A DNA stretch of 36,699 bases from a virus (Duplodnaviria; Caudoviricetes), in the IMG/VR virus record IMGVR_UViG_3300027769_000069, positions 1 through 36,699 of that record; one strand, written 5' to 3'. Below, in pieces: positions 4,311 through 36,699 of this stretch (the first letter of the stretch is position 1; every line of letters begins with the position of its first letter). A program made the translations under genes and the position numbers. Below the pieces are notes generated by a model. It was not told the origin of the DNA. It saw nothing but the letters and a program-made list of their open reading frames with translations, and searched no databases.

Positions 4311-4319
4311 TTACTCTCC

Positions 4320-4673
4320 TTATTCTGGTCTTGTTTCTTGTTCGTACTCTGGTCTTTCAATTGTTGGAGCATCTAGATTAAACCCCATACCTTCGGAGTC
4401 TGTTTCTTCTCCAACCTGACCAGTCATTTCAGCAAAGACAGCAGCTTCTTGTTCTTCTTGTGCTCTTAGTTCTTCTTCTTTAGCTAGAGCAGCTTCTTGT
4501 CTACGCTCTGCTTCTTCTTCCTTCTCCTGCTCTCGCTGAACTCTTAGTCTTTCTTCTGCTTCAAGTTGCATTTGCTTTTGTGCTTCTAATGCTTCTCTTT
4601 GCATGTCTCTTTGAAATTGAGTTTGCTGTTCCCAGCTAGGTCCTCTGGACCCACCTTTACCACCACCTCCCAT
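4320..4673 (-). CDS. hypothetical E/Q-rich coiled-coil protein preceding portal
   Basis: 117 aa beginning MGGGGK; occupies the position of T7 gp7.3-like genes. Confidence 0.7.
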   Translation of the reverse strand: MGGGGKGGSRGPSWEQQTQFQRDMQREALEAQKQMQLEAEERLRVQREQEKEEEAERRQEAALAKEEELRAQEEQEAAVFAEMTGQVGEETDSEGMGFNLDAPTIERPEYEQETRPE

Positions 4674-4675
4674 AG

Positions 4676-4846
4676 TTACTTCCTTTCTTGGGCATTATAC
4701 ATTGCCCGTATCTTCTGAACTAGTTCCACTTGTCCCGCTTTGTAACCCCTTTGATAATCTTTTAATTCTAGGTCGCTTGGATATAGGATTATCAACTTCT
4801 CCAAGTGTTGTACTAGTTCCTTGGATATTCTTAGGTTTTCTTTCAT
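4676..4846 (-). CDS. small conserved phage protein (MKENLRISKELV...AGQVELVQKI)
   Basis: 56-aa ORF read manually in an alternate frame to the 4695..4964 ORF; ends just before the next gene. Confidence 0.6.
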   Translation of the reverse strand: MKENLRISKELVQHLEKLIILYPSDLELKDYQRGYKAGQVELVQKIRAMYNAQERK

Positions 4847-4944
4847 TTTCTATAGTTCCATTCTTGTAATCATTAAGTACTTTTAAAACCAAGTGGAGGT
4901 CGGGGTCACGAATGACCCCTAACTTCCACTGCTTTAAAAGAATT

Positions 4945-5181
4945 TCAAGTCGGTTCATGTTCATCTGATTCCTTAATCATAATGTTTAGCATGAAATTCT
5001 TGGGGCCTGGTTCTATTTTATTTTCATAAATAGCTTCATGGAAATTATCTAAAAAGATTTTAACCATTGACTTATTATGAAACCCTACATCGAGTGTAGA
5101 GTTAGTAAGTTTAACTAGGTTAATAGCTTCTTTAACAACAGCATCCATGTCATATTCTGACTCTACAAATCTTGTTGGCAT
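4945..5181 (-). CDS. hypothetical protein
   Basis: 78 aa with AAGGAGG RBS. Confidence 0.7.
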   Translation of the reverse strand: MPTRFVESEYDMDAVVKEAINLVKLTNSTLDVGFHNKSMVKIFLDNFHEAIYENKIEPGPKNFMLNIMIKESDEHEPT

Positions 5182-12683: not shown

Positions 12684-12898
12684 AGATTCTCCTTAGATGA
12701 ATTAATGTCGCGCTCAAGGTTCAACTTGTTAGTAACGCTTACAAGTTCAGCGCGAAGCCGTTCGATTTCATCAGCAGCACTCTCCCAACATTCCGCCATC
12801 TCGCGGCAAACAGAATGATCAACGAGAAGAGGCTCTTGACGAGTACCAAAGAAAATAGCATCGGCTTGCAGACGATTTACGATGTCTGGGTCAGTCAT
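12680..12898 (-). CDS. cassette-array protein 8 (MTDPDIVNRL...AADEIERLRAE)
   Basis: Start chosen at the RBS-bearing junction motif. Confidence 0.7.
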   Translation of the reverse strand: MTDPDIVNRLQADAIFFGTRQEPLLVDHSVCREMAECWESAADEIERLRAELVSVTNKLNLERDINSSKENL

Positions 12899-13178
12899 TG
12901 GTGTTCTCCTTGAAGCAGTCCCACCCCTTGCTCTGTGCGACATTGATAGCCCTCTGCTCATATCCGTTCCCCGTTGCGTAGCAATAACTACGCCTCGCCT
13001 CGTCACGCTCGGCGGTGAGGGATGCGTTCTCCTGCCGAAGTCGCTTGTTTTCCTGCCATGCCTTTTCGATCATCAAAACTGCCTCGGTCGGAGTCATCTC
13101 CACGATCACCTCTCCTTCGCACCCCATAAATGAAACGGGGCAGGAAGCATCAATCGTCTTTGGCTTCTTATCGCTCAC
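12891..13178 (-). CDS. cassette-array protein 7 (ERDEARR...GWDCFKE)
   Basis: 95 aa; carries the shared motifs; overlaps neighbours. Confidence 0.72.
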   Translation of the reverse strand: MSDKKPKTIDASCPVSFMGCEGEVIVEMTPTEAVLMIEKAWQENKRLRQENASLTAERDEARRSYCYATGNGYEQRAINVAQSKGWDCFKENTND

Positions 13179-13381
13179 TTGTTGTCCTCCTCAAAGCAAT
13201 CCCATCCGATGTACTTGGCGATATGACGCGCAGAAACCATGTCGTGCGAGAGTCTGTGGCAAACATCTCGCCTTGCTTGATTGCGTTCTTCCGTTAGCGT
13301 GGCGACGCGTCGTTGAAGTTCAACAATCGTTTTGCGGCACTTCAAGGCATTGCTGAAAAGTTGTGTTATGCGTGCAATCAT
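13175..13381 (-). CDS. cassette-array protein 6 (ERNQARR...GWDCFEE)
   Basis: 68 aa; ATGA-coupled to the upstream gene. Confidence 0.7.
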   Translation of the reverse strand: MIARITQLFSNALKCRKTIVELQRRVATLTEERNQARRDVCHRLSHDMVSARHIAKYIGWDCFEEDNK

Positions 13382-13611
13382 TTGCCGTCCTCCTTGAAGC
13401 AATCCCACTCTCGACGCTTGGCTTCAGCACGAGCGCGTCGCTTCATGTCATCCACGGATAGGCAGTTGCCTACGGCTTCGGCTTCACACCACATCCGCCT
13501 CGCCTCGTCGCGCTCTTTGATTAGCCGCTCAATCTCTTCTGCGATCTCATCGGCACAGTTGATGCTGTGAGACAGTCTCTTGATCCTTGCGATGGCATCG
13601 TGTTCGTTCAC
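13378..13611 (-). CDS. cassette-array protein 5 (EIERLIKERDEARR...EWDCFKE)
   Basis: 77 aa; GTG start overlaps the upstream stop; AGGAGG RBS. Confidence 0.7.
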   Translation of the reverse strand: MNEHDAIARIKRLSHSINCADEIAEEIERLIKERDEARRMWCEAEAVGNCLSVDDMKRRARAEAKRREWDCFKEDGK

Positions 13612-13913
13612 TTGGTTTCCTCCTTGTAACAATCCCAGCCCTTTCGCTTTGCGATCTCTTTAGGATCTCTTGCAAGAGGATAGTCTGGCAGAATAATCTC
13701 TGAGCACGGATTCGTGCCAAAGTTATTTGATGTATCACGACGATCCTCCTCAAGCATGATGATTCGTGCTTCTAGATCGCAAGAATATCTCCTCGCCTCG
13801 TCGCGCTCGGCGCGCAGCCGTTCAATCTCGTTGGCGGATTCTGTGAACATCTGGCGCATGAAAAAGCCGCCGTCCGATTCGCGCAGCCGGGTCACGATGT
13901 CGGGGTCAGCCAT
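13608..13913 (-). CDS. cassette-array protein 4 (MADPDIVTRL...ERDEARR...FGTNPCSEIIL...GWDCYKE)
   Basis: 101 aa from the RBS-bearing junction; contains an RNR-like insert. Confidence 0.72.
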   Translation of the reverse strand: MADPDIVTRLRESDGGFFMRQMFTESANEIERLRAERDEARRYSCDLEARIIMLEEDRRDTSNNFGTNPCSEIILPDYPLARDPKEIAKRKGWDCYKEETK

Positions 13914-14208
13914 TGGTGTCCTCCTTGAAGCAGTCCCATCCTCGCTGTTCTGCAACTTGCGTTTCAGTCCCACTCCACTTTTGCCACAGCAAATTGCACA
14001 CCTCCCGCCTCGCCTCGTCACGCTCGGCGGTGATGCGGTCGATCTCGCGGCACGACCACGCAGCAAGCGCAAACGCTTCCTTGCGAAGCCGTTCAATCAG
14101 CGCAGTACCCTCAAGATTCGTGCTGCTCAAGCCTCGGGTTTGCATCAGCAGTTGGTTGATTCGTTGGTTGTTATTCATCGGTGTTCTCCTTCGTTGGTTG
14201 TTATTCAT
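13906..14208 (-). CDS. cassette-array protein 3 (MNNNQR...ERDEARR...GWDCFKE)
   Basis: Two in-frame starts (14208 and 14178) created by a 30-bp duplication. Confidence 0.7.
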   Translation of the reverse strand: MNNNQRRRTPMNNNQRINQLLMQTRGLSSTNLEGTALIERLRKEAFALAAWSCREIDRITAERDEARREVCNLLWQKWSGTETQVAEQRGWDCFKEDTNG

Positions 14209-14220
14209 CGGTGTTCTCCT
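14161..14220. repeat. perfect 30-bp tandem duplication containing an RBS and ATG
   Basis: tcgttggttgttattcatcggtgttctcct x2. Confidence 0.97.
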
Positions 14221-14485
14221 TGAACATATCGCGAAGCACCTCAAGATGCCCATTGCTTTCAGCACCGTGTTCGATGCGGCAGTCGATCTCGGTGAGGATG
14301 GAGTTCGTTCGCCGCCTCGCCTCGTCCCGTTCCTTGCGTAGCCGCTCAATCTCGTCGGCGGCTTCTTGGCAGATCGGGCTAGGGCCGTGGACAAACACGG
14401 GTTCGGGAAAGCCGTCCTTTGCGTAATGCATCCGCGTAGTGATGGCGATATGGTTACGAAGTTGGGTCACAATGTCATCGCTCAT
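14201..14485 (-). CDS. cassette-array protein 2 (MSDDIVTQL...AADEIERLRKERDEARR)
   Basis: 94 aa with AAGGAG RBS. Confidence 0.72.
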   Translation of the reverse strand: MSDDIVTQLRNHIAITTRMHYAKDGFPEPVFVHGPSPICQEAADEIERLRKERDEARRRTNSILTEIDCRIEHGAESNGHLEVLRDMFKENTDE

Positions 14486-15050
14486 TGTTCTTCTCCTTTC
14501 GATCTTCGGTTGCCCTGTTCAATAAGAAAATAATCTCTTCAGCATCATCATGGGCAAACTGGTGCGGGAATGCACAGTAAGTCTGCTGCTTCCCCGGCTC
14601 ACAGTCTTCCTCAATGAACACACCATCATCTCGGAATGGGTTGGGCCTGATACGCCACTTGGCTCCTGATGTGTACACATCCTTGCAAACTGCTCGGCAA
14701 TACATTCGCTTGTACCGCCCAAGTTCTATTTCCAGACGCTTGCACTTATCTTCAAGTTTCTTGAGACTTAGAGCAAGATTGTTACGGTCGGTTTGGAGAT
14801 GCTCGTTCTCAAGTCGCAGGATGTCGTAAGCGTTCTCCTCTGCAAGAAGTTTTTTACGCAGCCGTTCGATCTTATTGGCTGCTTCCCAAGTTAGGTTTTC
14901 GCATCGGGTGAAGGCTTCACGGTGAACATAATGCAGCCCTTCGTTTTCTGCGAGTTTCTTCGTGTGGTGGTTGATGACACGAAGACGGGCCACAAGTTCG
15001 CCTTTTTCTTCTTCCTGCCACGCTTCAATACTTGCTGGATCATCAGACAT
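14475..15050 (-). CDS. cassette-array protein 1 (ELVARL...EAANKIERLRK coiled coil)
   Basis: 191 aa; GAAAGGA RBS immediately after tRNA-Arg. Confidence 0.72.
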   Translation of the reverse strand: MSDDPASIEAWQEEEKGELVARLRVINHHTKKLAENEGLHYVHREAFTRCENLTWEAANKIERLRKKLLAEENAYDILRLENEHLQTDRNNLALSLKKLEDKCKRLEIELGRYKRMYCRAVCKDVYTSGAKWRIRPNPFRDDGVFIEEDCEPGKQQTYCAFPHQFAHDDAEEIIFLLNRATEDRKEKNNER

Positions 15051-19298: not shown

Positions 19299-19631
19299 TT
19301 ACGTCTTATGTTCTTCTGTTCTGCCATCTTTTAAATCCGTAATCTCAACGATCATTCTCTTTGGGATTTTATTTACCTGAGCTGTTTCATCAGGACCAAT
19401 AGTATTTGTTACTGCAAAATGATCTTCATCTTCATGCAATACAAAACCAACAGTAACCATGATTGGTAATGGAGACTTGCTAAATGATTGAGCTTTGCTC
19501 TTATCTAGCCACTCCTCACCACCCATAGTTACAGCATCAATCCAGAAGATCATAACCAGTTGACAGACTTCTTGTAGATATGTTACATTCTTAGGCAAAG
19601 AAGTATTCAGATCCGAGTACTTCTGAGACAT
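19299..19631 (-). CDS. conserved phage hypothetical protein
   Basis: W.DA...W...TVGFV...IPK pattern; start uncertain (GGAG precedes ATG at 19631). Confidence 0.65.
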   Translation of the reverse strand: MSQKYSDLNTSLPKNVTYLQEVCQLVMIFWIDAVTMGGEEWLDKSKAQSFSKSPLPIMVTVGFVLHEDEDHFAVTNTIGPDETAQVNKIPKRMIVEITDLKDGRTEEHKT

Positions 19632-22032
19632 CAAATTCTCCGTCTGGTTCTGGGCAGTCTGGAAGGAAGATGCCGTATTTTTCTTCGACTTCTTTCTTGA
19701 GTTTTTCAAGTTGATTCTCCTTGTGAATCAGAACAAATTGCTCACGAAGTAATACATGCATATGATCAATATCAGTTGCATATGTTCCAAAGGAATCGTG
19801 AACCATTGAAAATGCATTCATGCCACAGTCTAACATCCTACCGATAGTCATGAACATATGAGCAGCATCTAGCGCATGGATAAAGTTTGGAGAAATAGCG
19901 AGATACTGTGCCTTACCATCAAGATCTTCCGTAACAGTCGCGAATACCAACTGTTGCCTGTTAAATAGTTCCGCATAGGAAACCCTTTCTAGAACTTGGT
20001 TGTAAACATGATGTACTTCAAACCCACTAGGAGTTGTCCATACAAAAGGTTTATTCATAGCGTTAAGTACTTCTGCTACTTCTCTTAGCCATTCCTTACC
20101 CTTGTTGGGTGATTCCATAGTCTCACCAAGACCAGCTTGAATAGCCCTGCTTAGTTCAACTACGGCACCACCCCTGGATTCCTTTGGAACCCAGTCCACA
20201 TGTCCTTCTTGCTTGACATATTTCTGCATACCATAGAACGTAAGACCATAAGCATCACACATAGTAGGACGCTTTGTTACAGATCTAGGAAGTTTATTAT
20301 CCCAATTAAGAAGGAACACCTGATACCAGTTGTTCTCTGGATGTTGCTTCATGTACTCAGTACTTGCATCTGCAACATGCTGATAGAGATCTTCTGGTTC
20401 ATTACTGTTAAGTAGATTGGTAAGTTTGGCAAGCTTACGATTCTTCATAATAGCAGACCAATGTTGGCCACCATTATTAGCACCATCCATTTGAATATTG
20501 AGCTGCGTCATTCCATCCTTCCGAGCAATTTCAAAGATTGCTGCAAGGCGTTGGAACGATTTGTTCTTCTTCTTTAATGGATCAATCCACTCTTTGTTTG
20601 AGTATGGATCTTCTGCAATACGCAGTAGCATTTCCATGTTGTCATCTACCCACTTAACTCTTTGGTTAAATGGTTTCTTATCTTGGTCAAATAGGTTTGC
20701 TAGGTGTACCTTAAGCCAGAACAAACCACGCTCAGTCTGCTTGCGAGGCATAGCAAACTGAATAAGACCACGATCAAAGTCTACTCCCTGTGGTGACAAC
20801 AATTCACATACAGAGTAGGCTCTGCCTCTAAAGTCTAGAGTATACGGCATATAAAAGAAGTTCCAATCAAGCATCTTCTTTGCTAGTTGTAGCCGTACAA
20901 TCATACGACTACGAGATTGTTCTTCCTTATACCATTCTCCCCAAGCTTCATTAGATTCTTGCATCCACTTAGCTTGCTCTTCCTTTGTCCCTCCCTCCGG
21001 GTAGGGCCTACTAAATGCATAATCTTTAAATGTATATGCAGGAAGGTTAGCTAGTTTATGATCGTTCTCAAACATAGTTTTCATAACATCATAGACTTGC
21101 TTGTTAATCTTCCATTCAGTATGGCTAAGAGCATTGAGGCCACGAAGAACTAATTCACTTGGCCTTGAGTCCCAATCCTTAGGGTCTGCACCAACAGGAT
21201 GGTATCTCTTGATCATCTTCTTTCTGATCCAGGGTGACAAGAAGCCACCATCTTCCTTATCAGTATGTTTAATAGGAGGACAAATCATAGGACGATAAAC
21301 AAGACATGCTGCTTCTAGCATTTCATGTCGCTTACTTAGTTCCTTGAGAATCCAAGGAGCAAAGCAAACCAATAGGGACTTACGATTCTTACCATTCCAA
21401 TGTACTCTACTAACTAGAATATCACTAGAGAGAGCAATACGAATCATGTTATGGCCAAGGTCTTCCTTTTCCTTAGACTTAAGCTTAGGAATAGTACCAA
21501 CTTTTTGAGTGAATGCTTTACATCTCTTGACTGTCCAGTTCTTAATGAACTTAGATTGCTTACGCCAGTCTTCAGAAAACTTCTTCTTTGCTTGTTGGTA
21601 TGATACAATGCTAACAACATCATCAGCAATTAGCTTTGCAACTTGCTGTGCTACTGGGGCATTACTAGGAATACCCATTGTATCATCAAAGCTTTGAATT
21701 GTATTGCGTGTTAAGAACAACCGCATTACATTTCTAATTGTAATGTCTGCCATCTTAGCAGCACCAACACATAGTAAAGGTGCTAACCAATCAGGCGACT
21801 TACGGTTATTACAGCATTCATCAATCCACTTCTGATAGAAAGGAGTAAGATGAATGACTGCACTTTCAAGAAGCATTTGCTCAGGCTTTCCTTCATCAAC
21901 CGCACGATTGTACTCCTTCCAATACTTTTCAATACCATTATCTAAAAGATCTTCTTCAAATAACTTCTGATTAGTTACTCTATATTCTCTTTGTTCTTGA
22001 GATAGTTGTTCCCAACAGGGTGTTAAGCTCAC
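19591..22032 (-). CDS. T7-like single-subunit RNA polymerase (canonical)
   Basis: PMICPP, DFRGRAY, motif A MDGANNGGQH, motif B RSVTKRPTMCDAYG, SPNFIHALDA, motif C VHDSFG. Confidence 0.97.
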   Translation of the reverse strand: MSLTPCWEQLSQEQREYRVTNQKLFEEDLLDNGIEKYWKEYNRAVDEGKPEQMLLESAVIHLTPFYQKWIDECCNNRKSPDWLAPLLCVGAAKMADITIRNVMRLFLTRNTIQSFDDTMGIPSNAPVAQQVAKLIADDVVSIVSYQQAKKKFSEDWRKQSKFIKNWTVKRCKAFTQKVGTIPKLKSKEKEDLGHNMIRIALSSDILVSRVHWNGKNRKSLLVCFAPWILKELSKRHEMLEAACLVYRPMICPPIKHTDKEDGGFLSPWIRKKMIKRYHPVGADPKDWDSRPSELVLRGLNALSHTEWKINKQVYDVMKTMFENDHKLANLPAYTFKDYAFSRPYPEGGTKEEQAKWMQESNEAWGEWYKEEQSRSRMIVRLQLAKKMLDWNFFYMPYTLDFRGRAYSVCELLSPQGVDFDRGLIQFAMPRKQTERGLFWLKVHLANLFDQDKKPFNQRVKWVDDNMEMLLRIAEDPYSNKEWIDPLKKKNKSFQRLAAIFEIARKDGMTQLNIQMDGANNGGQHWSAIMKNRKLAKLTNLLNSNEPEDLYQHVADASTEYMKQHPENNWYQVFLLNWDNKLPRSVTKRPTMCDAYGLTFYGMQKYVKQEGHVDWVPKESRGGAVVELSRAIQAGLGETMESPNKGKEWLREVAEVLNAMNKPFVWTTPSGFEVHHVYNQVLERVSYAELFNRQQLVFATVTEDLDGKAQYLAISPNFIHALDAAHMFMTIGRMLDCGMNAFSMVHDSFGTYATDIDHMHVLLREQFVLIHKENQLEKLKKEVEEKYGIFLPDCPEPDGEFDVSEVLGSEYFFA

Positions 22033-26563: not shown

Positions 26564-26576
26564 ACTTTGCACATCT

Positions 26577-26858
26577 TTAGAAGGGGAGTGGCGACGAAAC
26601 TTCAGTCACCGTAACGGTAACACCCTCGATGAGAGGGGGACGATCCAGCTTGGGGCTGGGGCGAGAGATCTTACCCTTGAGGGCAGGAGCCTTGGGATGC
26701 ATGGCATCCGTGTTGTTCCACACGCTCACTGGCAACTTCACGGTTTCGTCACCGATAACAACAGTGACATAACCATTGAACCGGGGAGACTTAGGATTAT
26801 CGGAGTTGACATTCCACAAGTCGATACGGCAGGACGAAACAACCAATTCATTCACCAT
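26577..26858 (-). CDS. putative small nucleic-acid-binding protein ending in LPF
   Basis: NPKSPRFNG...VSVW...PALKG pattern; SSB-like C-terminal PF. Confidence 0.6.
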   Translation of the reverse strand: MVNELVVSSCRIDLWNVNSDNPKSPRFNGYVTVVIGDETVKLPVSVWNNTDAMHPKAPALKGKISRPSPKLDRPPLIEGVTVTVTEVSSPLPF

Positions 26859-26972
26859 CTTGTTCACTTTCTTCAAAGGATTCTTCGGGAGACAGTCCAT
26901 ACTCGGACATCAGCTGCTCCCACTCGCTGATACCCTTCCAATTTGATTCTTGATCTATCATTGTTTTCCCTG

Positions 26973-27008
26973 GCAAAAAAGACAACCTAAGGGTTAGCCT
27001 AGGTTGTC
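26973..27008 (-). terminator. intrinsic terminator
   Basis: Minus strand GACAACCTAGG-ctaacc-CTTAGGTTGTC followed by TTTTTT. Confidence 0.8.
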
Positions 27009-27009
27009 C

Positions 27010-27758
27010 CATGTAGGTCTTTATATTATCTCTTACCAGAGTAGATATAGACCTTAGACTATCTACTCTTGGTTATCCAATAACCGATGAAACGGTACAC
27101 ATTAGGGGTGTTTCATGTCCCTAACTGACTTCCGGCTTGAATTGAGTCCCCCATGTAGATCCGTCAACCTACACAGGACGCACTATGCTTATTCTTCTAT
27201 TTAACCTCGCATAGTCGAGGTATCCCTAAAGCCGTGTTACCACCCTAGGATAAACGGGTGACACTTGCCTGCCTAAAGGCCGGTATAATAACCACAATGG
27301 TAGGCTTACCCATTGCTACACCCTTGCGGGGCGTTTATTACCTAGGTTTGCAGCTTAAGTAATATCCTTTTGGATTCTTCAGGTGTACACCCTTCATCCC
27401 TTTAAGTCTGAAAGATACCCCACAGGTTTCCCCGTGGGATACCAGCTAGACTCGGTTCTAGCACGGGTGGAAACTACCACCTATATCTTCATCTTGTTTA
27501 TACTTGTGTGGAAGCGCACAAGTAGAGATCTCTGCCGATTTAATGGGCATTACCCCGGGCCGTGGCTTGGCTGGGATTTTAACTGTGTTTTAAGCCACAG
27601 TCAACCACTATTTTGTTGTCCACAATTTATTAATCCCCTATGGACGGTTGCTTGGGATACCCTTGTTGGCTTAATCCAATGTTCCCCGGGTCGAGGTCTA
27701 GAAATCGCCACCCGTAGGTTACCCCAGGGGTGGGAGGATGTAACCGTGGCTGGGTTAC
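27010..27758 (-). ncRNA. candidate large structured ncRNA made of tandem hairpins and pseudoknots
   Basis: No credible ORF; more than 12 hairpins; three GNRA loops and G-U pairs favouring the minus strand; at least 5 loop-to-downstream pairings; terminator at the 3' end. Confidence 0.65.
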
Positions 27759-28001
27759 TCAGCTCAGCTTGCCGCTGAGAACGGCGATCTTGGCTTCAGC
27801 AGCCGAGATCATGGCATCGGTAGCACCGGGATTCAGGAGCACACCGCCGACCAAGCCGTTGATCTGCATCTTGATGCGATCTTCGGCAGGGATCTGCGCG
27901 AGGCGTTCCTGACGGGCCTGCACCTTGTCGGCGTGGGCCTGCACGGAAACCTTGATACCAAGGCGGTCGAGTGCCGCCTGACGAGAAGTGATGTTGTCCA
28001 T
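27759..28001 (-). CDS. small GC-rich hypothetical protein upstream of the ncRNA candidate
   Basis: 80 aa from MDNITSRQ with GAAAGGA RBS. Confidence 0.7.
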   Translation of the reverse strand: MDNITSRQAALDRLGIKVSVQAHADKVQARQERLAQIPAEDRIKMQINGLVGGVLLNPGATDAMISAAEAKIAVLSGKLS

Positions 28002-28326
28002 CACATTCCTTTCGTAAGGGGATAGTAACCAAGAACGCAACGAGCGTACATGACAACCTCCCAAACAGAAAAACTTGCGTTTTTCACACACGACATCCCG
28101 AAGGGTGGCGCGGCCTTCAGGGTATATTAAGTTACGATTGGGAAAAAAGCAGGTACCAAAGCTATCATGCCCGATTTTGGTAAATTCGATATAAAGCCAC
28201 GGTAAGTTGGGGGCTATCTAGGTATCCCCCGGTATATTCGGAGGTCACAGAGGGCATTCTAGGGGCCTTAACGGGTACACTAGGTTACTATGGGGTACAA
28301 AGCCGTAAGCCAACTCACGGGAACTA

Positions 28327-28384
28327 GGGTACTTATGGGTACAGGACCGGGTAAATTGGGTAACTCCTGGGTATGGTAAGGGTA
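28327..28384. repeat. helically phased GGGTA pentamer array
   Basis: GGGTA at 28327, 28337, 28349, 28358, 28369 and 28380. Confidence 0.75.
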
Positions 28385-28407
28385 CAGAGGTTAATAATAA
28401 CCTAATA

Positions 28408-28436
28408 GAAAATCCCCTAGGGGTTTCCTAGGGGAT
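28408..28436 (-). terminator. terminator-like hairpin
   Basis: ATCCCCTAGG/CCTAGGGGAT followed by TTTCT, just after the stop of the upstream CDS. Confidence 0.65.
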
Positions 28437-28441
28437 GATGG

Positions 28442-28978
28442 TCAGACCAGAATGGTGTATTCTGGCAGTCGCCTACCGCTGACCACGGGGACGATGCGGT
28501 GTGCTGGCAGCTTAGCGGACACGCACTGATCATTCCAGGTCTTGGACCAGGTGGACCAAGCTTCGGTAGTGTCAGTAGCGTAGACTGTCAGGGCAGCAAT
28601 GATGCTGCGGCTGGTTCCGCCAACCTCACGAACGTAGAAGTTGGACTTCAGTTCCAGCTTGCCAGTAGCCATCCACGGTGCACGACCGCTTGGGTCGCGC
28701 TGGATCGTGACACCCTTGGAGGTGTAGATCCAACCATCCAGATCGGCCTCGTACTCCTTGGCCATAATCTGGTGGATGCTAACGCCCATGCCCATCTGAA
28801 CAACACGCAGATGGCAGAACTCAGTCTTCTTCCCCTTGATGTCCACACGCCAACTAGTGGCGTTTGACCACACGCGGTAAGCGTGGGTCGTAGACGAGAA
28901 GAACATGGGCGCACCGACCGGGGTGGACAGAACTTCACTGCCACAACCGATCACGATCTCGGGCTTAGGAAGAGTCAT
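28442..28978 (-). CDS. GC-rich hypothetical protein
   Basis: About 178 aa; GGAG RBS favours the MTLPK start; follows the second RNAP. Confidence 0.7.
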   Translation of the reverse strand: MTLPKPEIVIGCGSEVLSTPVGAPMFFSSTTHAYRVWSNATSWRVDIKGKKTEFCHLRVVQMGMGVSIHQIMAKEYEADLDGWIYTSKGVTIQRDPSGRAPWMATGKLELKSNFYVREVGGTSRSIIAALTVYATDTTEAWSTWSKTWNDQCVSAKLPAHRIVPVVSGRRLPEYTILV

Positions 28979-29046
28979 AGACATCTCCATATGCTAGGTT
29001 TTATGGGAATTGGGATACAAACCTAGACAAACTTTCCCATATAAAT

Positions 29047-29074
29047 CCCCCCTAGGTTTGACCCTAGGGGGGAA
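29047..29074 (-). terminator. strong hairpin after the second RNAP
   Basis: tcccccctagg/cctagggggga inverted repeat, weak T tail. Confidence 0.55.
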
Positions 29075-29087
29075 GTTGCGGGGTAGA

Positions 29088-30992
29088 TCAGCGGAAGATG
29101 TGATCAGCAGCTGCGACGAATTCAGCTTCAGTCACATCGTTCTTGATCGTTGGGAAGAGCTTGCCAAGCTCCTCCTGCATGGAAGTGCGGTAGTTGCCCA
29201 CGCACTGGCGGTACATGTTCCGGGCATACACCTGGGACAAGTCCCGCATCCAAGGACCAATGCGAACAGTGATCGCATCGTGTCGGGTCGAAACAACACA
29301 ACCCTTGGACTTGGATTCCATGTCGTTGATGGTGTCAGTCAGGGTCCTGGCATCCTGACAGGTGGTTACAGCCACCAACGAACCGTTCGGCGTATCATCC
29401 CGGTTGACCACACCGGTAGGCTCGTAGGGAAGCACAGGCTGGCCAGTCTCATCACGGTGACCCGTAATGAATGGAGCCATCCTAGGCTGGAAGCGAGTGG
29501 GCCACCCACGCTCCTTGCACAACTCAAGGCAAGAGTGTGGGAGAGAGATGCTGATGGTGGGAAGATCCCGCTTCTGAGTCACGGGATCTACCGGGAACCA
29601 ATCCAAAGCAGGGACTGCCTTGTAGTGGTTGAACTTCACACCATCGTACTGGTAGGCGAAGGTTTCGCCATTGGCATAGCGAGCCTTCATGTGTGCCAAC
29701 CAGACATCACCCAGGTGGAACAGGGCAGGGTCCCACTTCTGGACCGCTGCCACTGACGCGTCACTGACCCGCTTGGCCAGCAGCTTGATGTCGGACTGAG
29801 GCCAGTCCTTGATCAAGCACAACTCCGGGCGGAAATCCTCAGCCCGAAGGACGGCTTCCTTGAGAGAGAACGGGGCAAGGACATTGCCTTCGTTATCTTC
29901 AAGCTGCCCACCCATCCCGTAGAGGAACACGGCACCGAGCTGTCGCCCAGTGTAATTGGTGACTGTCAGGACATTCTTGCCCCAGTCTTGCGACCGAACA
30001 AACGTCTTGACCTCTTCTGGGAATTCACCCTCAATGAAGGGGGTGATCCCAGCGTACACCTTCTTGCCTGCCATCACATCACGGCAAGCACGCGTTCCTC
30101 CCGCAGCCAGCGAAGTAGCAACTGGGCCTTGGGCATGGGCATCCTTGCCAATGTGACCAAAGCTGAGGCCAGTATTCCTAGCCTCTGCCAGTTGCTGACA
30201 GTTCTGGACAAAGCGGAGGATGTTGCGCTTCTTCAGCCCAACACCACGAAGACCACCAATGGGGTTAACAAACAACCCCAAGGCGAATTCTTCGTCCTTG
30301 CCAGTGCGCTGCACCACGTCGATGCCGACCTTGGCATCGGCTGCGATCATGTGTTCCCACATGTCGCAGTCTTCCTTGCTGACCTTGTTGGGTTCAGCAA
30401 GCTGCCAGAGGGCACACACATCCCCATCCAGCATCGTGGGCAGGACCTTGCCATCCCGATTGTATGCGTAGAAACGACCACCACGCAGATCGGGAGAGTG
30501 CCAGAATTGCACGGCCTCACCCTTGGTGAGCTTGGCCATGTTCTCAATCTGCCACTTGGCAAGGTACTCCATCAGGAAGATCGGCTCATTGACAATAACC
30601 TTGCGATCATTGTGGACAACCTCGTAAGTCTTGCGACCCATCATGGTTGCCACCTTGATTGCAAAGTCGAACATGCGCTCATCGCGCACGAACTGAACCG
30701 AGTCCATCACCAGCATGCCACTTGCGTGGCTGGCCCAACAACGAGTGTCAGGCATGAGGTCCATGATGTCCTCGCCCTGTCGCCGCAGGGTCCAGGACTT
30801 GTAGACCTGTGTTCCTGCCTTGTGCACTTCGCAGTGCATCCGGTATGCACCGGAGAGAATCATCTTACCGATGACACCTCCGGTAACGGCGAACGATGAC
30901 GGATCCACCCCCGCAAGGATGGATTCCGACTGGAGAGCCACGACCAGATCGTGGATTGAGTACTCTCCCTTACCCATGAATGGAATGTTCAT
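29088..30992 (-). CDS. divergent T7-type single-subunit RNA polymerase homologue (second copy)
   Basis: Colinear DLRGGRFY, GKDAHAQG (motif A), KNVLTVTNY (motif B, K-x7-Y), TCQDA and RHDAI (motif C). Confidence 0.78.
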   Translation of the reverse strand: MNIPFMGKGEYSIHDLVVALQSESILAGVDPSSFAVTGGVIGKMILSGAYRMHCEVHKAGTQVYKSWTLRRQGEDIMDLMPDTRCWASHASGMLVMDSVQFVRDERMFDFAIKVATMMGRKTYEVVHNDRKVIVNEPIFLMEYLAKWQIENMAKLTKGEAVQFWHSPDLRGGRFYAYNRDGKVLPTMLDGDVCALWQLAEPNKVSKEDCDMWEHMIAADAKVGIDVVQRTGKDEEFALGLFVNPIGGLRGVGLKKRNILRFVQNCQQLAEARNTGLSFGHIGKDAHAQGPVATSLAAGGTRACRDVMAGKKVYAGITPFIEGEFPEEVKTFVRSQDWGKNVLTVTNYTGRQLGAVFLYGMGGQLEDNEGNVLAPFSLKEAVLRAEDFRPELCLIKDWPQSDIKLLAKRVSDASVAAVQKWDPALFHLGDVWLAHMKARYANGETFAYQYDGVKFNHYKAVPALDWFPVDPVTQKRDLPTISISLPHSCLELCKERGWPTRFQPRMAPFITGHRDETGQPVLPYEPTGVVNRDDTPNGSLVAVTTCQDARTLTDTINDMESKSKGCVVSTRHDAITVRIGPWMRDLSQVYARNMYRQCVGNYRTSMQEELGKLFPTIKNDVTEAEFVAAADHIFR

Positions 30993-31219
30993 TGGGTTAT
31001 TTCCTCTCAATAAGAAGGAGAATGGGCCAACTTTATATAGCCTTGGACCATAGGCTTGCCCAACAGTAGGGCTATCTAACTACTTGGTACATGAACCAGC
31101 CTGTTTATGTACATTCCTGTACACAGAATGGTTATATCTCTCTTACTGGTATAGCCTCCTTTCAGAGCATCAGTAAGAGCAACCTCCACTTAAGGCGGGA
31201 GTAAACCAGCACTAGGCCA

Positions 31220-31573: not shown

Positions 31574-34500
31574 TTACCTCAGTGAGTCTGGGGCTTTAAT
31601 CGGTGTAGTAGCCTGATCTTCCAACGATGGTTCTTTGATCTTTGGTTCTACTAGCTTAGGTGGAGTAGCTGGTTTTGTTGGCTCTACTGGCTTAGCTACT
31701 TCATCTGTTAAACCAAGAGATGGCAATCTGCGTTCTCTTAGTCTATCTACATACTGTTTTAGTTTTTGTGAAAGCTCTGCTTCAAACTGGCTATACATCA
31801 TTTGTTTGAATACAGAATCTGGAGTTGATAGATTCATATTCTGGTATTCGCCATAGGCAGTTGAGAATGCTGTATTTAGTTTCTTTCCTGTGCTATCACG
31901 CTTTCCAGAATCGTATGGTCCTTTGACTTTAGACTGTGCTTCATTTGCAAGTCCTTGGTTAACTGCTGCTTTTACAATACCATTACTAAATATTGGTATT
32001 AGACCTAATCCACCGTTATATGCAGCCTTTAGTCTTTCCTCGTCAGACTCTGCATTTATAAATGTATTAGTATTCTTTGCTAGGTTACCAAGTAATCTAG
32101 TTGCAGCAGTTAAACCTAAGCCTTGTAACTCTGGTTCAGTGCCACGTTTCCCAGCAACGGTATTAGCCAAATAGAATATTATATCTAGTATAAAGTTACC
32201 ATTAAGTGTAAGCATTGGGTTTCTAATTACAGACCGGGCTAGAATCTGTATTAATTTTTCTGAGGGCTTACCCTTTAGTAATCTGTCTATTTCATCTAAG
32301 CTAAGGAATCCAGACGCAACAGCAAGGAATGTCTGGTACATGATATCGCCTACAAAGTAGGCTAACATAAGTCCTGCCATCTTACTTGTAGACATTCTTG
32401 CACTATTCCTTAACATCATCTGTCCAGCAAACAAGATAGAGTATGATCTATACAGGGACATAAACTTAGCTAGTGGAGTATCATCTGTAATTGCATCCAT
32501 TACAGAGGAAGAAACTAATCCCTGTTTAACTGATAGTTCTTGGAACTTTTCAATAGATCCAACAGCTTTAATTAGTTCTTTCTTGCTTAATGATATACCA
32601 TCTACTAGAACTCTAAAGTCATCTGGTAGTTCAAGGATCTTATCCATGTAGGTTGTAATGCTAACCTTACCACTGTTTCTTAGATACTTAAGAGCTTCAA
32701 TAGTGCCTAGTTCAAAGATACCAGCAGCTTTCATTCTTAGTACAGACTCTGGTGATGGTAGACTGCGTTGACCACTGTTACGTAGTTTCTTTAGTAGAGT
32801 GACATAGCTTCGATAATCTTTCTTTTCAATAGAAGAATCAATTAACAGTCTACGAATTTCTTGTAGGTTGTTTGTATTGAGTTGTCTATTTAGTTGTGTT
32901 CTAGCAACAGAAGCCAGTGCTGTTCTTGCTGCAAGGGATGTTGCCATGTTTAAAGCTTGGGTTGCACTTAAGAATCTATTGAATCCTCTGTTTACTTTTT
33001 GGGTAAAGTCTACTTCGCCATACAACTGTTCCCAAGAACTTGCAAAGTTATTGTTGGAGTCCCATAGGATTTCTGCAAAGTCTGCAAAGTCTCCACGAAT
33101 TTGGGTTTGTTTCCAGCCATCACCAAAAGCACCGACGCTTAGTCTAAGTGAGTCTGCAATAAACTTACCGTAGAAATTCAATGCACCCATAGGCCCACCA
33201 ATAATAGATGAACCAAATGCACCAGCTACTGAGTCTACAAGAATACCAGCTGCAATCTGGTTTGGACTCCATAGGATATTTGCAGCTAGTGTACCATATC
33301 TAAGTAATGCAGCAGATACATTTGATCCTTCTGTTTCTCTGGATGCTGAACGCATATTCCACATAAACTTATACTTATGCTCTAATACAGTTAGTGCACT
33401 CTTAAGTAGTTCAACCTGTTCTGGTGTTAGCCCGGTTGCTCTTGGACCATTAGGAGTCATTTCAAATTGACCATAAGTTAATGATGAACCAGAACCTCTT
33501 TGTTTCTCATCAAGACTCTTGCTACCATTCTCAACATAGTCTTTTAGAATGGAGATTAACTTTAATATATCATAACCCTGTACATTAGTAATCTTATAGA
33601 TTAACGAACGGGATACCGCTTGTTGACCTAAGCCACTACCAATTGATTTTATGATGGATCTAATATCTCTAGAGAAGCCAGCACGAATTGACTGTAGTTC
33701 TTCTAATCCCAATGTATCTACATAAGCATCACCAAATATATCATCAACAGTCAAGTTGATATCATCTGCATATGTTACGGCTGCGCTTGTACCAATTGTA
33801 TTTACAAAGTCAATAGCAAGCAACTCCATAATAGAGTTAGTCTCTGGGTTTAGAATCTGTCTTTCTTCTTTGATCTTAATTGGGAACCGTTCGGTTCTCA
33901 TTGCGTTTATCTTCTTAGATAAACCTGGTGGGTTAGCTTCATCATTTGTTATTGTATTCTTAATAGCATCCCTAATAATGTTTATTTGTTCTGGAGTTAT
34001 GCCAGACTCATTTGCTATTAAGATTGAGTTAAGGTTATTAACTCTGTTGGTACTTGCCCGTAGCAAAGCTTTATATCCACGCTTAAGATCAACCATAGCA
34101 TTTATATTACCAGCAACAGCACCCCGTTTAATACTATCCTTTTTGTCGCCTAGTGAAGAAGATCCTTCTTTTTCTCTGGCAGCATATGATAAGATAGCAT
34201 TAAACATAATTGACTCAAAAGAGTTATTTGGTGTTATGCTTACGTTGCGTTCAATAAACGATAGGAATTCTTTATCGTTTCTAACATCAGACAATGAGCC
34301 AGTTGAAATAAGTGGCATACCCGATGTTAGCATAAATGTAACTGGATGAATCTTATCAGAATCAACTAGTTCTTTAAGTTGCTTTGCTCTAACTAAAGAT
34401 GTTAAACCAGATAGGAATTGTCTTCTTCTACCTTTGTAATTCTTTGGGTTTTTGTTTTCTCTAAACTGATCTATATCAAGTTTAAATGCCAAAAAACTAT

Positions 34501-36699
34501 CGTGGAATTTTCTATTCTTATCCTTTAGATTTGCATCCCTAATGATATTGTGTAGCATTTCAGAAGACTTGCGATAAACATCACCTAGTCTTCTAATTGC
34601 ATTTTGCTCTTCTGTTGTAAATGATGGATTAATAGTTCCGTTTACAAGATAGCTAAATGCTTCTAGTACTATATCTGATGCTTTGTTAGTTGCTCCTGGT
34701 TTTGGAACTACAGAACTAAACTGAGCTACAACCTGATTGTATACAGAAGAAACTTGATTAACAAGTAGATTAACTTGATACTGATTTTGCTTTAGGCCGT
34801 CCAATCCTTCGTTGCCTGTAAAGTAAGCATCTGTTGTTTGGGCTTCTGCATCAATTAGATTAGCAAGAGATACAACAATACCAAAGGGTGAGTTGTATGT
34901 TAATCCTGTTTGAGCACCAGTTAATCCTAAGATAGATGTACCAAAGGTTTGCATGGATTGGATCATTCTGTTTCGCTTATGGCCATCGTTTTCCATAGCA
35001 ATACCTTGGCTAAATAAACCCATAAGTTGTCTTGCAAGGTAAGCAGCAGTGCCTTTGCTATCTACACGTTTACCTCTAAAGTCACTTAGTTTTCTAATTA
35101 TGTGGTCTACCAATACTAGATTTTCTGTATCGTTTTCCGGCTCTGCAAACTCAGTACCACCAGTACTTCGATTCCGTAGTTCGGTAAGCGTAGTATAGTA
35201 TACTTCATCACTTATACCCAAGTGATCTCTGTTATTAACCCATCTATCTTTTATAGATTCTATTCTAGCAGCAACGGCAGTATGGCGTGGAGAACCTGGT
35301 TCTAATGTTGCTAGTTCATCCTTAAGTTGCTGGTACTCGCTCATATTCCTTTGCTTTTCAGTATCAAAGGCTTCTTTTTGTTCTGGCGTTACTCCTGGAT
35401 TATAGTTTATAGAAGCATCATAAATAATAAAACTGTCTTCCAATGCGTCTTTATAAACTTCCTGCACCGCTGTTCTTGTATCAGAAGTTGCATCAAAGAA
35501 TGCATTAAACACTCTGTTTACTTTTTCAGACACACCCCTATACTTTTTCTTAATCATCATTTCATCTAGGAAGATAGCCGCCCCATTAGCAAAGTAGGCA
35601 ATAGCATTGAATGTACGCTTCCACCAAGAATTAACCTTTGTAGTTATATCATTGGTTTCTTCCATAGCCTTTAGTTCTACACCATCCTTGCCACCAACAG
35701 CTCTAGTAATAAGCATCTGGCTGCCCCACATAACTAAAGCTTCTTCAACATTTTCTTGATAGAACTTAATTAGTTTGTTAATATCAGCTCTTGTTAGTGA
35801 TTGGTTTCCAGAGAATGCATTGATAACCATACGTTCAATTGCTTCTTGACCAGACTCAGTTTGTAGACTTTCCATTGCTTCTTCAAATCCAATTCTATCT
35901 CGGATCTTAGAATAGTTTAAAGCAATGTGTGATAGTTCATGAGATAGTGTTTCTACTGCTTGCTCTGCTGATCTTTCTGCAATTATTGCTTTTGCTTTAT
36001 CTGGTGATGCAGCAAAGACAATTTCAAATACATCATTTGTTTTGCGGATCTTAGCTAGTTTGTTGTTTTCGACTCTATCAATATTAATTGTTAGGTGTTC
36101 TTCTAACTCTGGATGTTTGTGTAATACATAACCAACCATTGCTCTATAGGTTTGTTCTGTTAATGAATCTAAACCTAAAGATTTAATTTGGTTATTTAAT
36201 GTTTCACCAGCTTTGTTAAACTTGCTTAAGAATACAGTTTCGTTTCCAAACTTAGTAGCTGTTTCAGTTGAATCAGTATTATAGAATGTTAATTCCAAAC
36301 CAGACTCGGCATTCATTAAATCTATAGTTTGCTTTGTTGCTAACTGAATAAGTTTCTTATCTTCTGCTTTTAGTTTTGTTCCTGCCGCTTCTAAAGAAGC
36401 AATAAACTTTACAGAAGCTGTTTCTACACTTAGTTCATTAGTTGGAATGTCGGCTCTTTGTAAGAAACCTCTAACTGAAGTATAGTATGGATTAGATAGT
36501 GGGTCATTGATTTGTTTTACTTGTCTTTGAATTCTAATAATGATTTCAGTTAGATTTTCAATAGTCTTTTGTTTTACACCCTTCTTTCTTAGGGTATAAG
36601 CAACTAAAGATTCTATAGAGTTTCTAGTCATATCTGGATTGGATATATACATAGAAACTACTGGCAATAGTTGTCTAATGTTTTCTTCATCAGTCATTA
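31574..36699 (-). CDS. large internal virion / ejection protein (probably 5'-truncated by the window)
   Basis: At least 1707 aa, helical composition, last gene before terminators; contains HELSH (HExxH). Confidence 0.7.
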   Translation of the reverse strand, partial: MTDEENIRQLLPVVSMYISNPDMTRNSIESLVAYTLRKKGVKQKTIENLTEIIIRIQRQVKQINDPLSNPYYTSVRGFLQRADIPTNELSVETASVKFIASLEAAGTKLKAEDKKLIQLATKQTIDLMNAESGLELTFYNTDSTETATKFGNETVFLSKFNKAGETLNNQIKSLGLDSLTEQTYRAMVGYVLHKHPELEEHLTINIDRVENNKLAKIRKTNDVFEIVFAASPDKAKAIIAERSAEQAVETLSHELSHIALNYSKIRDRIGFEEAMESLQTESGQEAIERMVINAFSGNQSLTRADINKLIKFYQENVEEALVMWGSQMLITRAVGGKDGVELKAMEETNDITTKVNSWWKRTFNAIAYFANGAAIFLDEMMIKKKYRGVSEKVNRVFNAFFDATSDTRTAVQEVYKDALEDSFIIYDASINYNPGVTPEQKEAFDTEKQRNMSEYQQLKDELATLEPGSPRHTAVAARIESIKDRWVNNRDHLGISDEVYYTTLTELRNRSTGGTEFAEPENDTENLVLVDHIIRKLSDFRGKRVDSKGTAAYLARQLMGLFSQGIAMENDGHKRNRMIQSMQTFGTSILGLTGAQTGLTYNSPFGIVVSLANLIDAEAQTTDAYFTGNEGLDGLKQNQYQVNLLVNQVSSVYNQVVAQFSSVVPKPGATNKASDIVLEAFSYLVNGTINPSFTTEEQNAIRRLGDVYRKSSEMLHNIIRDANLKDKNRKFHDSFLAFKLDIDQFRENKNPKNYKGRRRQFLSGLTSLVRAKQLKELVDSDKIHPVTFMLTSGMPLISTGSLSDVRNDKEFLSFIERNVSITPNNSFESIMFNAILSYAAREKEGSSSLGDKKDSIKRGAVAGNINAMVDLKRGYKALLRASTNRVNNLNSILIANESGITPEQINIIRDAIKNTITNDEANPPGLSKKINAMRTERFPIKIKEERQILNPETNSIMELLAIDFVNTIGTSAAVTYADDINLTVDDIFGDAYVDTLGLEELQSIRAGFSRDIRSIIKSIGSGLGQQAVSRSLIYKITNVQGYDILKLISILKDYVENGSKSLDEKQRGSGSSLTYGQFEMTPNGPRATGLTPEQVELLKSALTVLEHKYKFMWNMRSASRETEGSNVSAALLRYGTLAANILWSPNQIAAGILVDSVAGAFGSSIIGGPMGALNFYGKFIADSLRLSVGAFGDGWKQTQIRGDFADFAEILWDSNNNFASSWEQLYGEVDFTQKVNRGFNRFLSATQALNMATSLAARTALASVARTQLNRQLNTNNLQEIRRLLIDSSIEKKDYRSYVTLLKKLRNSGQRSLPSPESVLRMKAAGIFELGTIEALKYLRNSGKVSITTYMDKILELPDDFRVLVDGISLSKKELIKAVGSIEKFQELSVKQGLVSSSVMDAITDDTPLAKFMSLYRSYSILFAGQMMLRNSARMSTSKMAGLMLAYFVGDIMYQTFLAVASGFLSLDEIDRLLKGKPSEKLIQILARSVIRNPMLTLNGNFILDIIFYLANTVAGKRGTEPELQGLGLTAATRLLGNLAKNTNTFINAESDEERLKAAYNGGLGLIPIFSNGIVKAAVNQGLANEAQSKVKGPYDSGKRDSTGKKLNTAFSTAYGEYQNMNLSTPDSVFKQMMYSQFEAELSQKLKQYVDRLRERRLPSLGLTDEVAKPVEPTKPATPPKLVEPKIKEPSLEDQATTPIKAPDSLR

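Follow-up and report, generated by a model that had tools for sequence, protein, structure and literature searches.

The non-coding interval 27010-27758 of a viral genome fragment, read on the minus strand, contains, amid three further conserved pseudoknot (PK) modules, a sequence of the Pistol ribozyme family, and the cut predicted for this ribozyme probably frees or defines the 5' end of a 173-nucleotide (nt) RNA built of two pseudoknots. The fragment, hereafter the window, is the whole stretch of DNA that was analyzed, 36,699 nt from a virus of the Caudoviricetes (Duplodnaviria; IMG/VR record IMGVR_UViG_3300027769_000069, positions 1 to 36,699). The interval contains a member of the Pistol family, its modules are conserved and covary, and the ribozyme, the two pseudoknot domains behind it (PK-B and PK-C) and a terminator keep a constant geometry within a clade of uncultured freshwater phages with a T7-like RNA polymerase, in which the unit is conserved. 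The upstream 540 nt resemble a 3' untranslated region, with lineage-specific hairpins and the third module, PK-A, and are not part of one large RNA as had been proposed in a first-pass annotation that described some 750 nt as a chain of non-identical pseudoknots. Coordinates of all features are collected in Table 1.

Table 1. Features of the interval and its surroundings, and contigs from RNA libraries (window positions; aa, amino acids; bp, base pairs; MFE, minimum free energy).
Feature	Position	Strand	Description
41-nt conserved block	27699-27739	minus	directly after the stop codon of the 80-aa gene
Two small hairpins	27684-96; 27666-79	minus	CCUCG-ACC-CGGGG; UUGG-AUUAAG-CCAA; between the 41-nt block and PK-A
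PK-A, H-type pseudoknot	27618-27658	minus	contains a stem of the first-pass annotation as S2
PK-A S1	27654-58/27633-37	minus	AUCCC/GGGAU; ACCGC/GCGGU in relatives
PK-A L1			conserved AAGCAACC
PK-A S2	27641-45/27618-22	minus	GUCCA/UGGAC, 5 bp
PK-A L3			UAAUAAAUUG in the window; A/U-rich, AUAUAAAUA
Region downstream of PK-A	27533-27617	minus	hairpin CUGUG-GCUUAAAA-CACAG at 27583-27600; CCAAGCCA motif
Terminator-like hairpin	27410-27443	minus	13 bp, GAAA-capped, then UUUC (MFE fold)
Module (d)	27315-27363	minus	8-bp hairpin with loop AGCUGCAAACC, then CCCC-GCAA-GGG hairpin, then UGUAGC
Pistol self-cleaving ribozyme (predicted)	27143-27220	minus	Rfam RF02679, 40.5 bits against a gathering cut-off of 34.5
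Ribozyme P1	27216-20/27205-09	minus	CCUCG/CGAGG
Ribozyme pseudoknot	P1 loop 27210-15 and C27209 with 27182-88	minus	perfect 7 bp, ACUAUGC/GCAUAGU
Ribozyme A-rich linker	27198-27204	minus	UUAAAUA
Ribozyme P2	27194-97/27143-46	minus	GAAG/CUCA
Ribozyme P3	27149-78	minus	first described as a long G-U-containing helix
Predicted scissile junction	G27148/A27147	minus	position from the Rfam alignment
Predicted 3' cleavage product	26975-27147	minus	173 nt, predicted ribozyme cut to terminator
PK-B domain	27077-27136	minus	outer helix GCCG 27133-36/CGGU 27083-86; hairpin 27102-24 (stem 27102-07/27119-24)
PK-B pseudoknot	27110-16 with 27087-93	minus	loop AUGAAAC with GUUUCAU
PK-C domain	27015-27069	minus	10-bp hairpin 27038-47/27060-69
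PK-C pseudoknot	27049-54 with 27015-20	minus	loop AGGUCU with AGACCU, directly before conserved ACAUGGGAC
Intrinsic-terminator-like hairpin	26975-27008	minus	GACAACCUAGG/CUUAGGUUGUC, then UUUUUU 26975-80
RNA run X1	26566-28400		one contig
RNA run X16	26568-26938; 26936-27127; 27533-28074		depths 78.5, 13.9 and 74
RNA run X17	27199-27388 and others
RNA run X18	27155-27393
RNA run X19	26783-26959; 27726-28074
RNA run X20	27221-27383; 27487-27689

The segment at 27143-27220 is a new member of the known Pistol family and is predicted from its sequence to be self-cleaving. Its match has an E value of 3.4e-4 for the window and of 1.2e-5 for 1.3 kilobases (kb), and it is the only Rfam match with E below 0.1 on either strand of 26800-28100. 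It unites two elements that the first-pass annotation had listed separately, a hairpin with a loop pseudoknot (now P1 and its pairing, which comparison among relatives supports) and the long G-U-containing helix (now P3). The novelty claimed for the interval holds for most of it, which falls in no catalogued RNA family (Rfam, E<=10, only Pistol found), and is lost for this part, a match to a known family being an outcome that the annotation had itself named as removing novelty. The cmscan alignment keeps the core, with a purine before G33, G33 itself, G40, C41 and G42 (env25 numbering), reading A-G...G-C-G; the roles of purine 32, G40 and G42 are given in passages of a review (PMC6154101). Exactly 2 nt join the 3' strands of P3 and P2, GA here versus GU in the family consensus, and passages of the family description (PMC4604425) give the GU identity as modestly conserved and the 2-nt length as strict. 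The Rfam covariance model does not score the loop-junction pseudoknot, and the window's version departs from the consensus by paired changes.

As relatives we took 45 loci with related T7-like polymerases (L numbers label these and further loci). A Pistol match lies at the equivalent site, about 5 kb upstream of the polymerase, in five of the six loci scanned first (L003, L008, L009, L023 and L024; none was found with Rfam in the sixth, L035), and syntenic matches were found in 15 of the 19 loci scanned later. Among 17 aligned ribozymes of the clade, P1 and the pseudoknot are 100% paired, and five of six pseudoknot pairs have changed on both sides; overall 12 of 18 counted pairs have done so, against a shuffle mean of 3.2 (reached by 0 of 500 shuffles; slid controls gave at most 2). 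Four versions of the loop and its partner occur: ACUAUG/CAUAGU, CUUGGA/UCCAAG, CACUAGG/CCUAGUG and ACUAGA/UCUAGU.

Downstream of the ribozymes, the relatives present an outer helix, PK-B, PK-C with ACAUGGGAC, and the terminator, in that order. Counted from the predicted junction to the end of the U-run, the window copy of this unit is 173 nt long; of 22 distinct sequences, 20 fall within 167-174 nt, and the copies of L048 and L003 reach 223 nt. The distinct sequences include those recovered by a metagenome pattern scan, which returned 47 stretches, 22 with the unit (15 distinct) and 25 by chance. A covariance model, R1, was built on a 20-sequence alignment of relatives and the window copy (alignment A4); it gives 107.6 bits for the window as against 36-38 bits for L003 and L048. 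The 22 distinct units were then aligned to R1 (alignment A6). In that alignment 93.6% of cells are paired as compared with 82.7% in shuffles, and 24 of 44 pairs have changed on both sides, compared with 12.9 in shuffles (none of 500 reaching the observed count; slid controls at most 9). Changes on both sides affect 4 of 6 pairs of the PK-B hairpin, 10 of 10 of the PK-C hairpin and 7 of 12 of the terminator stem. The counts are low for the PK-B pseudoknot (1 of 7 pairs, the other six being invariant) and the PK-C pseudoknot (1 of 5), since the 19 sequences of one subset, group 2, scarcely vary in either strand. None of the 22 aligned units lacks the terminator, whose GUCUUU tail is invariant; a Rfam Pistol match lies directly upstream of 18 of these units, the other four (L082, L091, L093 and L110) having a pistol-like core. 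The predicted product RNA represents a conserved RNA family that is absent from Rfam 15.

Neither MAFFT nor the model was able to align the PK-B region of L048 and L003, and these two were treated separately. An unsupervised scan for loops that pair with their flanks found both pseudoknots in the window, L008, L023, L048 and L003, with different letters. PK-B pairs AUGAAAC with GUUUCAU in the window, UUGAAAC with GUUUCAA in group 2, and UGAACA with UGUUCA in L048 and L003; the corresponding PK-C pairings are AGGUCU/AGACCU, AACCC/GGGUU and UAACCC/GGGUUA. The stems and loop pairings that the first-pass annotation had drawn in these two domains, and the terminator it placed behind them (seen here with its stem at 26981-27009 and its U-run at 26975-80), are borne out by comparison. 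Searches of cultured phages with a canonical relative's copy of the unit matched only the 45-nt pistol core, in Cellulosimicrobium phage DS1, and a blastn search with 26900-27800 gave no match among cultured phages. A scan of one genome per prokaryote species yielded five pattern matches, all at or below 18.9 bits with R1 and so dismissed as chance, and no clue to the host. A terminal helix between the product 5' end and AUGGG, noticed by eye, was dropped as too short to carry meaning.

PK-A was found around a 9-mer, CAAGCAACC, that recurs in the window and its relatives, and is likewise an RNA family absent from Rfam 15; Rfam gave nothing for a canonical copy at E<=10. Like the product RNA, it was also not seen in cultured phage genomes or in the set of one genome per prokaryote species. 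Of the 16 stretches that a pattern scan of viral contigs returned, 14 are real and two are chance matches. Across 23 distinct copies (alignment A7) pairing extends to 97% of cells, S2 is intact in every copy, and six of ten pairs have changed on both sides versus a shuffle mean of 2.5 (0 of 500 reaching it; slid controls 0-1). The first-pass annotation had recognized S2, which is present and covaries in relatives; its second pairing, 27632-37 with 27573-78, gives way to 27633-37 with 27654-58, which covaries in the 23 sequences. The window, L048 and L003 carry PK-A in the 3' region of the 80-aa gene, some 400 nt upstream of the ribozyme; in L008, L009, L023, L024 and many metagenome loci it directly follows the unit terminator. 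This variable position indicates that the modules are separable and form an array.

Could PK-A be a signal in DNA, such as a promoter for a phage RNA polymerase or an origin element, rather than an RNA fold? Its position behind the terminator in L008, L009, L024 and many metagenome loci would suit a promoter, as would the -10-like TATAAAT that it contains and a sigma-70-like match directly behind the window copy (27604-27576, 10 of 12 positions). Promoters of phage polymerases occur in many near-identical copies per genome and need no internal complementarity. The PK-A core, allowing up to two mismatches, is present once per genome in five of five complete genomes of about 68 kb, promoter-like matches in the region stand at the shuffle level (3 versus 2.9), and compensatory change in six of ten pairs, with S2 intact in every copy, is not required of a duplex promoter. 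We therefore regard a DNA-level role as quite improbable. We note that L091, a metagenome contig, carries two PK-A copies of different subtypes 220 nt apart (927-980 and 1150-1203).

The interval as a whole is dense in structure, as first described, and the five loop-to-flank pairings of the first-pass annotation can all be drawn at the positions it gave. It is non-coding on the minus strand, with no minus-strand open reading frame (ORF) longer than 36 aa within 27013-27758, and a 131-aa plus-strand ORF at 27383-27778 has no Pfam or PHROG match. A hidden or decayed gene was considered and rejected: tblastx matches to L003 occur in all frames, which places the conservation at the nucleotide level, and blastx against neighboring ORFs of the relatives yields only the tail of the adjoining gene. 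Measured against 20 shuffles each, the folding energies are -261.1 kcal/mol (z = -4.9) for the minus strand and -234.6 kcal/mol (z = -3.5) for the plus strand, and 14 hairpins compare with 6.2 in shuffles. A script that sought stems of at least 6 bp with loops of 6-20 nt and a perfect loop complement of at least 6 nt within 60 nt on the 3' side found four cases, namely PK-C, PK-B, the ribozyme P1 and an alternative fold of the 27717-45 region; dinucleotide shuffles averaged 0.54 (standard deviation 0.76), and 2 of 300 reached four. The GNRA-capped hairpins of the first-pass annotation are also present (GAAA, 27414-43; GCAA, 27321-31; GUAA, 27708-33).

That these elements form one novel RNA of about 750 nt, for example a decoy array for a type III toxin-antitoxin system or a partner of a second polymerase, seems very improbable to us, even though the whole interval is free of minus-strand ORFs and well folded, a single contig of RNA run X1 covers all of it, and a divergent RNA-polymerase-like gene lies upstream in the window, L003, L009, L023 and L024. 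Module order varies by lineage, PK-A following the terminator in L008, L009, L023 and L024; only the L048/L003 lineage conserves the middle 390 nt; both a terminator-like hairpin (27410-43) and the ribozyme lie inside the interval; and the RNA contigs are fragmented within it in five of six runs. The connection to the polymerase-like gene is one of synteny only. The ToxI antitoxin is a tandem array of near-identical 36-nt units that is processed by its toxin. ToxI and phage pseudo-ToxI RNAs share with our interval a pseudoknotted, phage-borne character and A/U-rich linkers containing AAAU (in PK-A, PK-C and the ribozyme), but the modules here are mutually unlike, the AUAAAU linker is a generic Pistol feature, and the tandem repeats that define such arrays are absent (Tandem Repeats Finder, 0 arrays at a score of at least 30); the decoy idea is not supported. 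The sole direct repeat is one 12-nt pair (27008-27019 and 27150-27161), seen only in the window. Through it the 3' strand of ribozyme P3 is nearly identical to the segment before the terminator, and the P3 5' strand could pair with either; this alternative pairing, noticed by eye, was dropped as too short for meaning and specific to the window.

Other catalogued RNAs were sought in 26800-28100 on both strands at E<=10, and Rfam gave no match to GOLLD, ROOL, group I or II introns, RNase P or other ribozymes. No transfer-messenger RNA was found in the window by ARAGORN or, at the same E value, by Rfam in 26800-28100, in keeping with the first-pass annotation. For the canonical stretch of a relative (L024 4380-5000) Rfam gave only a chance match to the trpB motif, at 23 bits against 59.

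Parts of the interval are held by six RNA-library runs. The very uneven depth across X16 (78.5, 13.9, none, 74) argues for RNA rather than an even carry-over of DNA. In two studies contigs end close to the predicted cut, at 27127 (X16) on one flank and at 27155 (X18) on the other, and such breaks are a weak hint of cleavage. Uncovered stretches (27128-27532 in X16; 27394-27467 in X17, X18 and X20) were not used as evidence, since the DNA run X10 also breaks, near 27388-27447. We also note that X16 contigs end in Illumina adapter letters at 26568, 9 nt past the stop codon of a 107-aa gene, and at 27533; this suggests favored ends of RNA fragments, but position 27533 falls within the palindrome AGAGAUCUCU.

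From these observations we can outline how the unit would work. The minus-strand transcript would fold as it is made; the ribozyme would then cut itself off at G27148/A27147, leaving a 5'-OH on the downstream RNA, and the host RNA polymerase would halt at the U-run 26975-80, so that a discrete, compact RNA of 173 nt could accumulate. Conserved unpaired stretches (such as AGCCG, UGAAACA, GUUUCA-CGGU and ACAUGGGAC) are its likely contact surface for a partner.

Several points weigh against this proposal. The window ribozyme has the lowest Pistol score of the clade, with GA rather than GU at the junction, and its P2 has two Watson-Crick pairs of four, plus G-A and A-C; a weak P2 also occurs in higher-scoring relatives (GAGG/CCGA in L009). 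Covariation of the PK-B and PK-C pseudoknots rests on two or three lineages, and alignment A6 was fitted to a model, with the window out of register in two helices. A simple scan for terminators missed the unit's hairpin, though its 6-nt loop is within the limits of the scan. The RNA data consist of assembled contigs, from which ends and strands cannot be read, and in one run of six (X1) a contig bridges the predicted cut. Furthermore, the X16 contig 26936-27127 crosses the terminator, so that some transcripts read through and the product may be a leader rather than a free RNA, and the AUG of the next gene (26961) lies 13 nt behind the U-run.

The last two observations bear on an alternative in which the unit acts in cis as a leader: the pistol sequence would trim the 5' end, and PK-B and PK-C would sense a signal, in the manner of a riboswitch or by binding protein, and so set read-through into the genes 13 nt behind. 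A structured domain followed by a terminator, a ribosome-binding site and a start codon is the classical layout of attenuators, and is similar in L003 and L048, where a gene starts 10-16 nt after the terminator. The terminator stem directly adjoins the 3' strand of PK-C, and the unpaired nucleotides are conserved while the stems covary, as they would in an aptamer. Attenuating riboswitches and leaders share a conserved pseudoknotted domain with invariant unpaired bases, but the window has no Rfam riboswitch match or identified antiterminator, the by-eye candidates from the PK-C 3' strand being 5-nt alternatives that were discarded as too short for meaning. Moreover, group-2 terminators precede further non-coding modules (PK-A and others) and not a gene, most relatives having no gene in that place. 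The genes downstream in the window belong to no Pfam family and offer no clue to a ligand, one of them having weak PHROG matches of unknown function. On balance a cis-acting attenuator is unlikely, although it deserves serious consideration.

A more passive role is also conceivable, in which the ribozyme and hairpins only punctuate a long early transcript, cutting, insulating and protecting its ends with modules that have no function of their own. Pistol ribozymes are intergenic in all relatives and lie 1-50 nt after an ORF stop in L023 and L024, as such punctuation would predict. Yet end protection would not hold long unpaired stretches identical among phages whose polymerases are 79-86% identical, nor would punctuation fix the length of the unit at 167-174 nt or maintain two loop-to-flank pairings through compensatory change, and we consider it improbable. 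Such a role recalls T7, whose polycistronic early transcript is cut at RNase III sites between the genes: in both cases structured RNA separates early genes of a phage with a T7-like polymerase. Here, by contrast, cutting would be autocatalytic and the flanking RNA is far more conserved and complex.

Going beyond a ribozyme-defined product, we tentatively suggest, as a possibility more than an expectation, that the unit represents a new class of phage RNA of about 170 nt with two pseudoknots, made by cut and terminator and acting early and in trans by binding a host or phage protein (the putative second polymerase, fast-evolving and encoded directly upstream, being one candidate), and that PK-A may be a second new class of pseudoknot that binds a ligand or protein.

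Several variants of the ribozyme and its surroundings were seen in the clade. At about 590-650 in L082, L091, L093 and L110 the product unit is preceded by a pistol-like core below the Rfam threshold; those of L091, L093 and L110 have no P1 hairpin or A-rich linker and a 4-bp Watson-Crick P2, and that of L082 keeps a 4-bp P1 and lacks the linker. The P3 loop carries an insertion of about 100 nt in L024 (4303-4464) and L090 (667-829), which Rfam aligns in part only, at 43 and 41 bits. L013, L014 and L015 have, some 60 nt upstream of their ribozymes, an extra module of hairpin, linker and partner strand with a PK-A-like grammar (linkers UAUAUAAAUA in L013, AAUACAAAUA and UAUAAAAAUA in L014 and L015), and no PK-B or PK-C stands behind these ribozymes. 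In L011 (about 3590-3610) a tRNA-like T-arm sequence, GGUUCGAAUC, occurs in the non-coding stretch behind the terminator, with no Rfam tRNA call.

The remaining elements of the interval are more narrowly distributed. The 41-nt block behind the 80-aa gene forms a GNRA-capped hairpin (CCACCC 27733-28 with GGGUGG 27713-08; inner UGGG-GUAA-CCUA) and matches L003 at 40 of 41 nt (97.6%), whereas the flanking protein is only 51% identical; its loop is GUAA in the window and GAAA in L048 and L003, it is present in a single copy, and those two loci alone came up for it in a pattern scan of viral contigs. The two small hairpins that follow differ in sequence from their L048 equivalents (ACCCC-AAAC-GGGGU and GGUGG-CUGCAA-CCACC; compared by eye, in two lineages only). 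Behind PK-A, the CCAAGCCA motif is common to type-2 PK-A loci, by eye with L011, L018 and L065. The GAAA hairpin at 27410-43 resembles the terminator of L048, with which it has 9-mers in common (GGGGAAACC/GAAACCUGU), and was not found in group-2 relatives. In module (d), the pairings of the first-pass annotation can all be drawn (stem 27337-44/27356-63 and loop GCUGCA with UGUAGC at 27315-20, each with one G-U), but comparison does not support its pseudoknot, which has a C-A mismatch in L048 and has lost the partner strand in L003. Its hairpin and the block UAAACGCCCC(G)GCAAGGGUGUAGCA are kept in L048 with a different, covarying stem, and a pattern scan found the block only in the L048/L003 lineage.

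Compared with L048, to which it is 95% identical, L003 has an insertion of about 640 nt between PK-A and the ribozyme (4039-4675), with a 110-aa ORF and a second CAAGCAACC; the MAFFT alignment of the whole interval broke down at this point. Several hundred bases behind PK-A are conserved at the nucleotide level in L008 (about 620-1300) and L024 (about 4680-5000), and are probably more structured RNA, a 132-aa frame in L024 being broken in L008 and L009.

The window itself is a 36.7-kb record, about 54% complete, with nearly all genes on the minus strand and a T7-like RNA polymerase gene at 19591-22032 (Pfam RNA_pol, 3.6e-82; PHROG 414). There is no close cultured phage, the polymerase being less than 30% identical to any, and the sequencing runs that hold this DNA are labelled freshwater or lake-water metagenomes. 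Four tRNAs were found by ARAGORN, all outside the interval. A cassette at 27600-31200 rich in guanine and cytosine (G+C; 0.56 versus about 0.39 elsewhere in the window) encodes a 640-aa protein with no Pfam, PHROG or PDB sequence match, through which no relatives were found in viral contigs. ESM Atlas features and predicted structure group it with single-subunit RNA polymerases (cosine 0.94, TM 0.61-0.64), making it a candidate divergent second RNA polymerase, a lead and not proof. Across the clade, the region upstream of the ribozyme includes a G+C-rich ORF of 590-670 aa (L003 559-2436, L009 2012-3958, L023 1569-3341, L024 1217-3220); it evolves very fast, with 63%, 34% or undetectable identity to the window's protein, and resembles a second single-subunit RNA polymerase (ESM Atlas; blastp, in which L023_590 weakly matches the T7-like enzyme). 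A second G+C-rich island (12750-14500; 0.52-0.58) is an array of small paralogous minus-strand genes whose 5' regions and internal segments recur every 200-500 nt (repeat families D1-D6 and D9), and an ORF of more than 1707 aa at 31574-36697, open at the window end, has no Pfam or PHROG match.

In its P1, pseudoknot, A-rich linker, P3, 2-nt junction and core purines the window ribozyme is like the Pistol family as passages of its description present it, and it adjoins phage genes, as these passages report to be typical (RF02679; PMC4604425). It differs in its weak P2, GA junction and long P3 (30 nt), it makes up only about 10% of the interval, and the conserved cargo RNA behind it is outside the family description. 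The theta ribozymes, which resemble that of hepatitis delta virus, offer another likeness, in that passages on them describe a small self-cleaving ribozyme of gut phages directly beside structured RNA, suggesting the definition of an end (PMC10879173); theirs, however, is another class, with tRNA cargo of known function, whereas the cargo here is an uncatalogued RNA with two pseudoknots. A full-text search confined to Creative-Commons PMC and bioRxiv found no account of a unit of pistol and cargo.

To our knowledge, the chemistry of pistol ribozymes is well understood and their biological role is still open. In this clade the ribozyme is tied to a conserved cargo RNA whose length is fixed and whose end lies at a terminator, so that making or trimming a specific structured RNA becomes a candidate role. 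The two RNA families beyond Rfam 15 offer enough variants, 22 distinct for the product RNA and 23 for PK-A, for covariation and probing. A cargo acting in trans would be a phage early RNA of a new kind and would give pistol ribozymes their first concrete job, whereas a cargo serving as a leader would be a new attenuator whose 5' end is set by a ribozyme.

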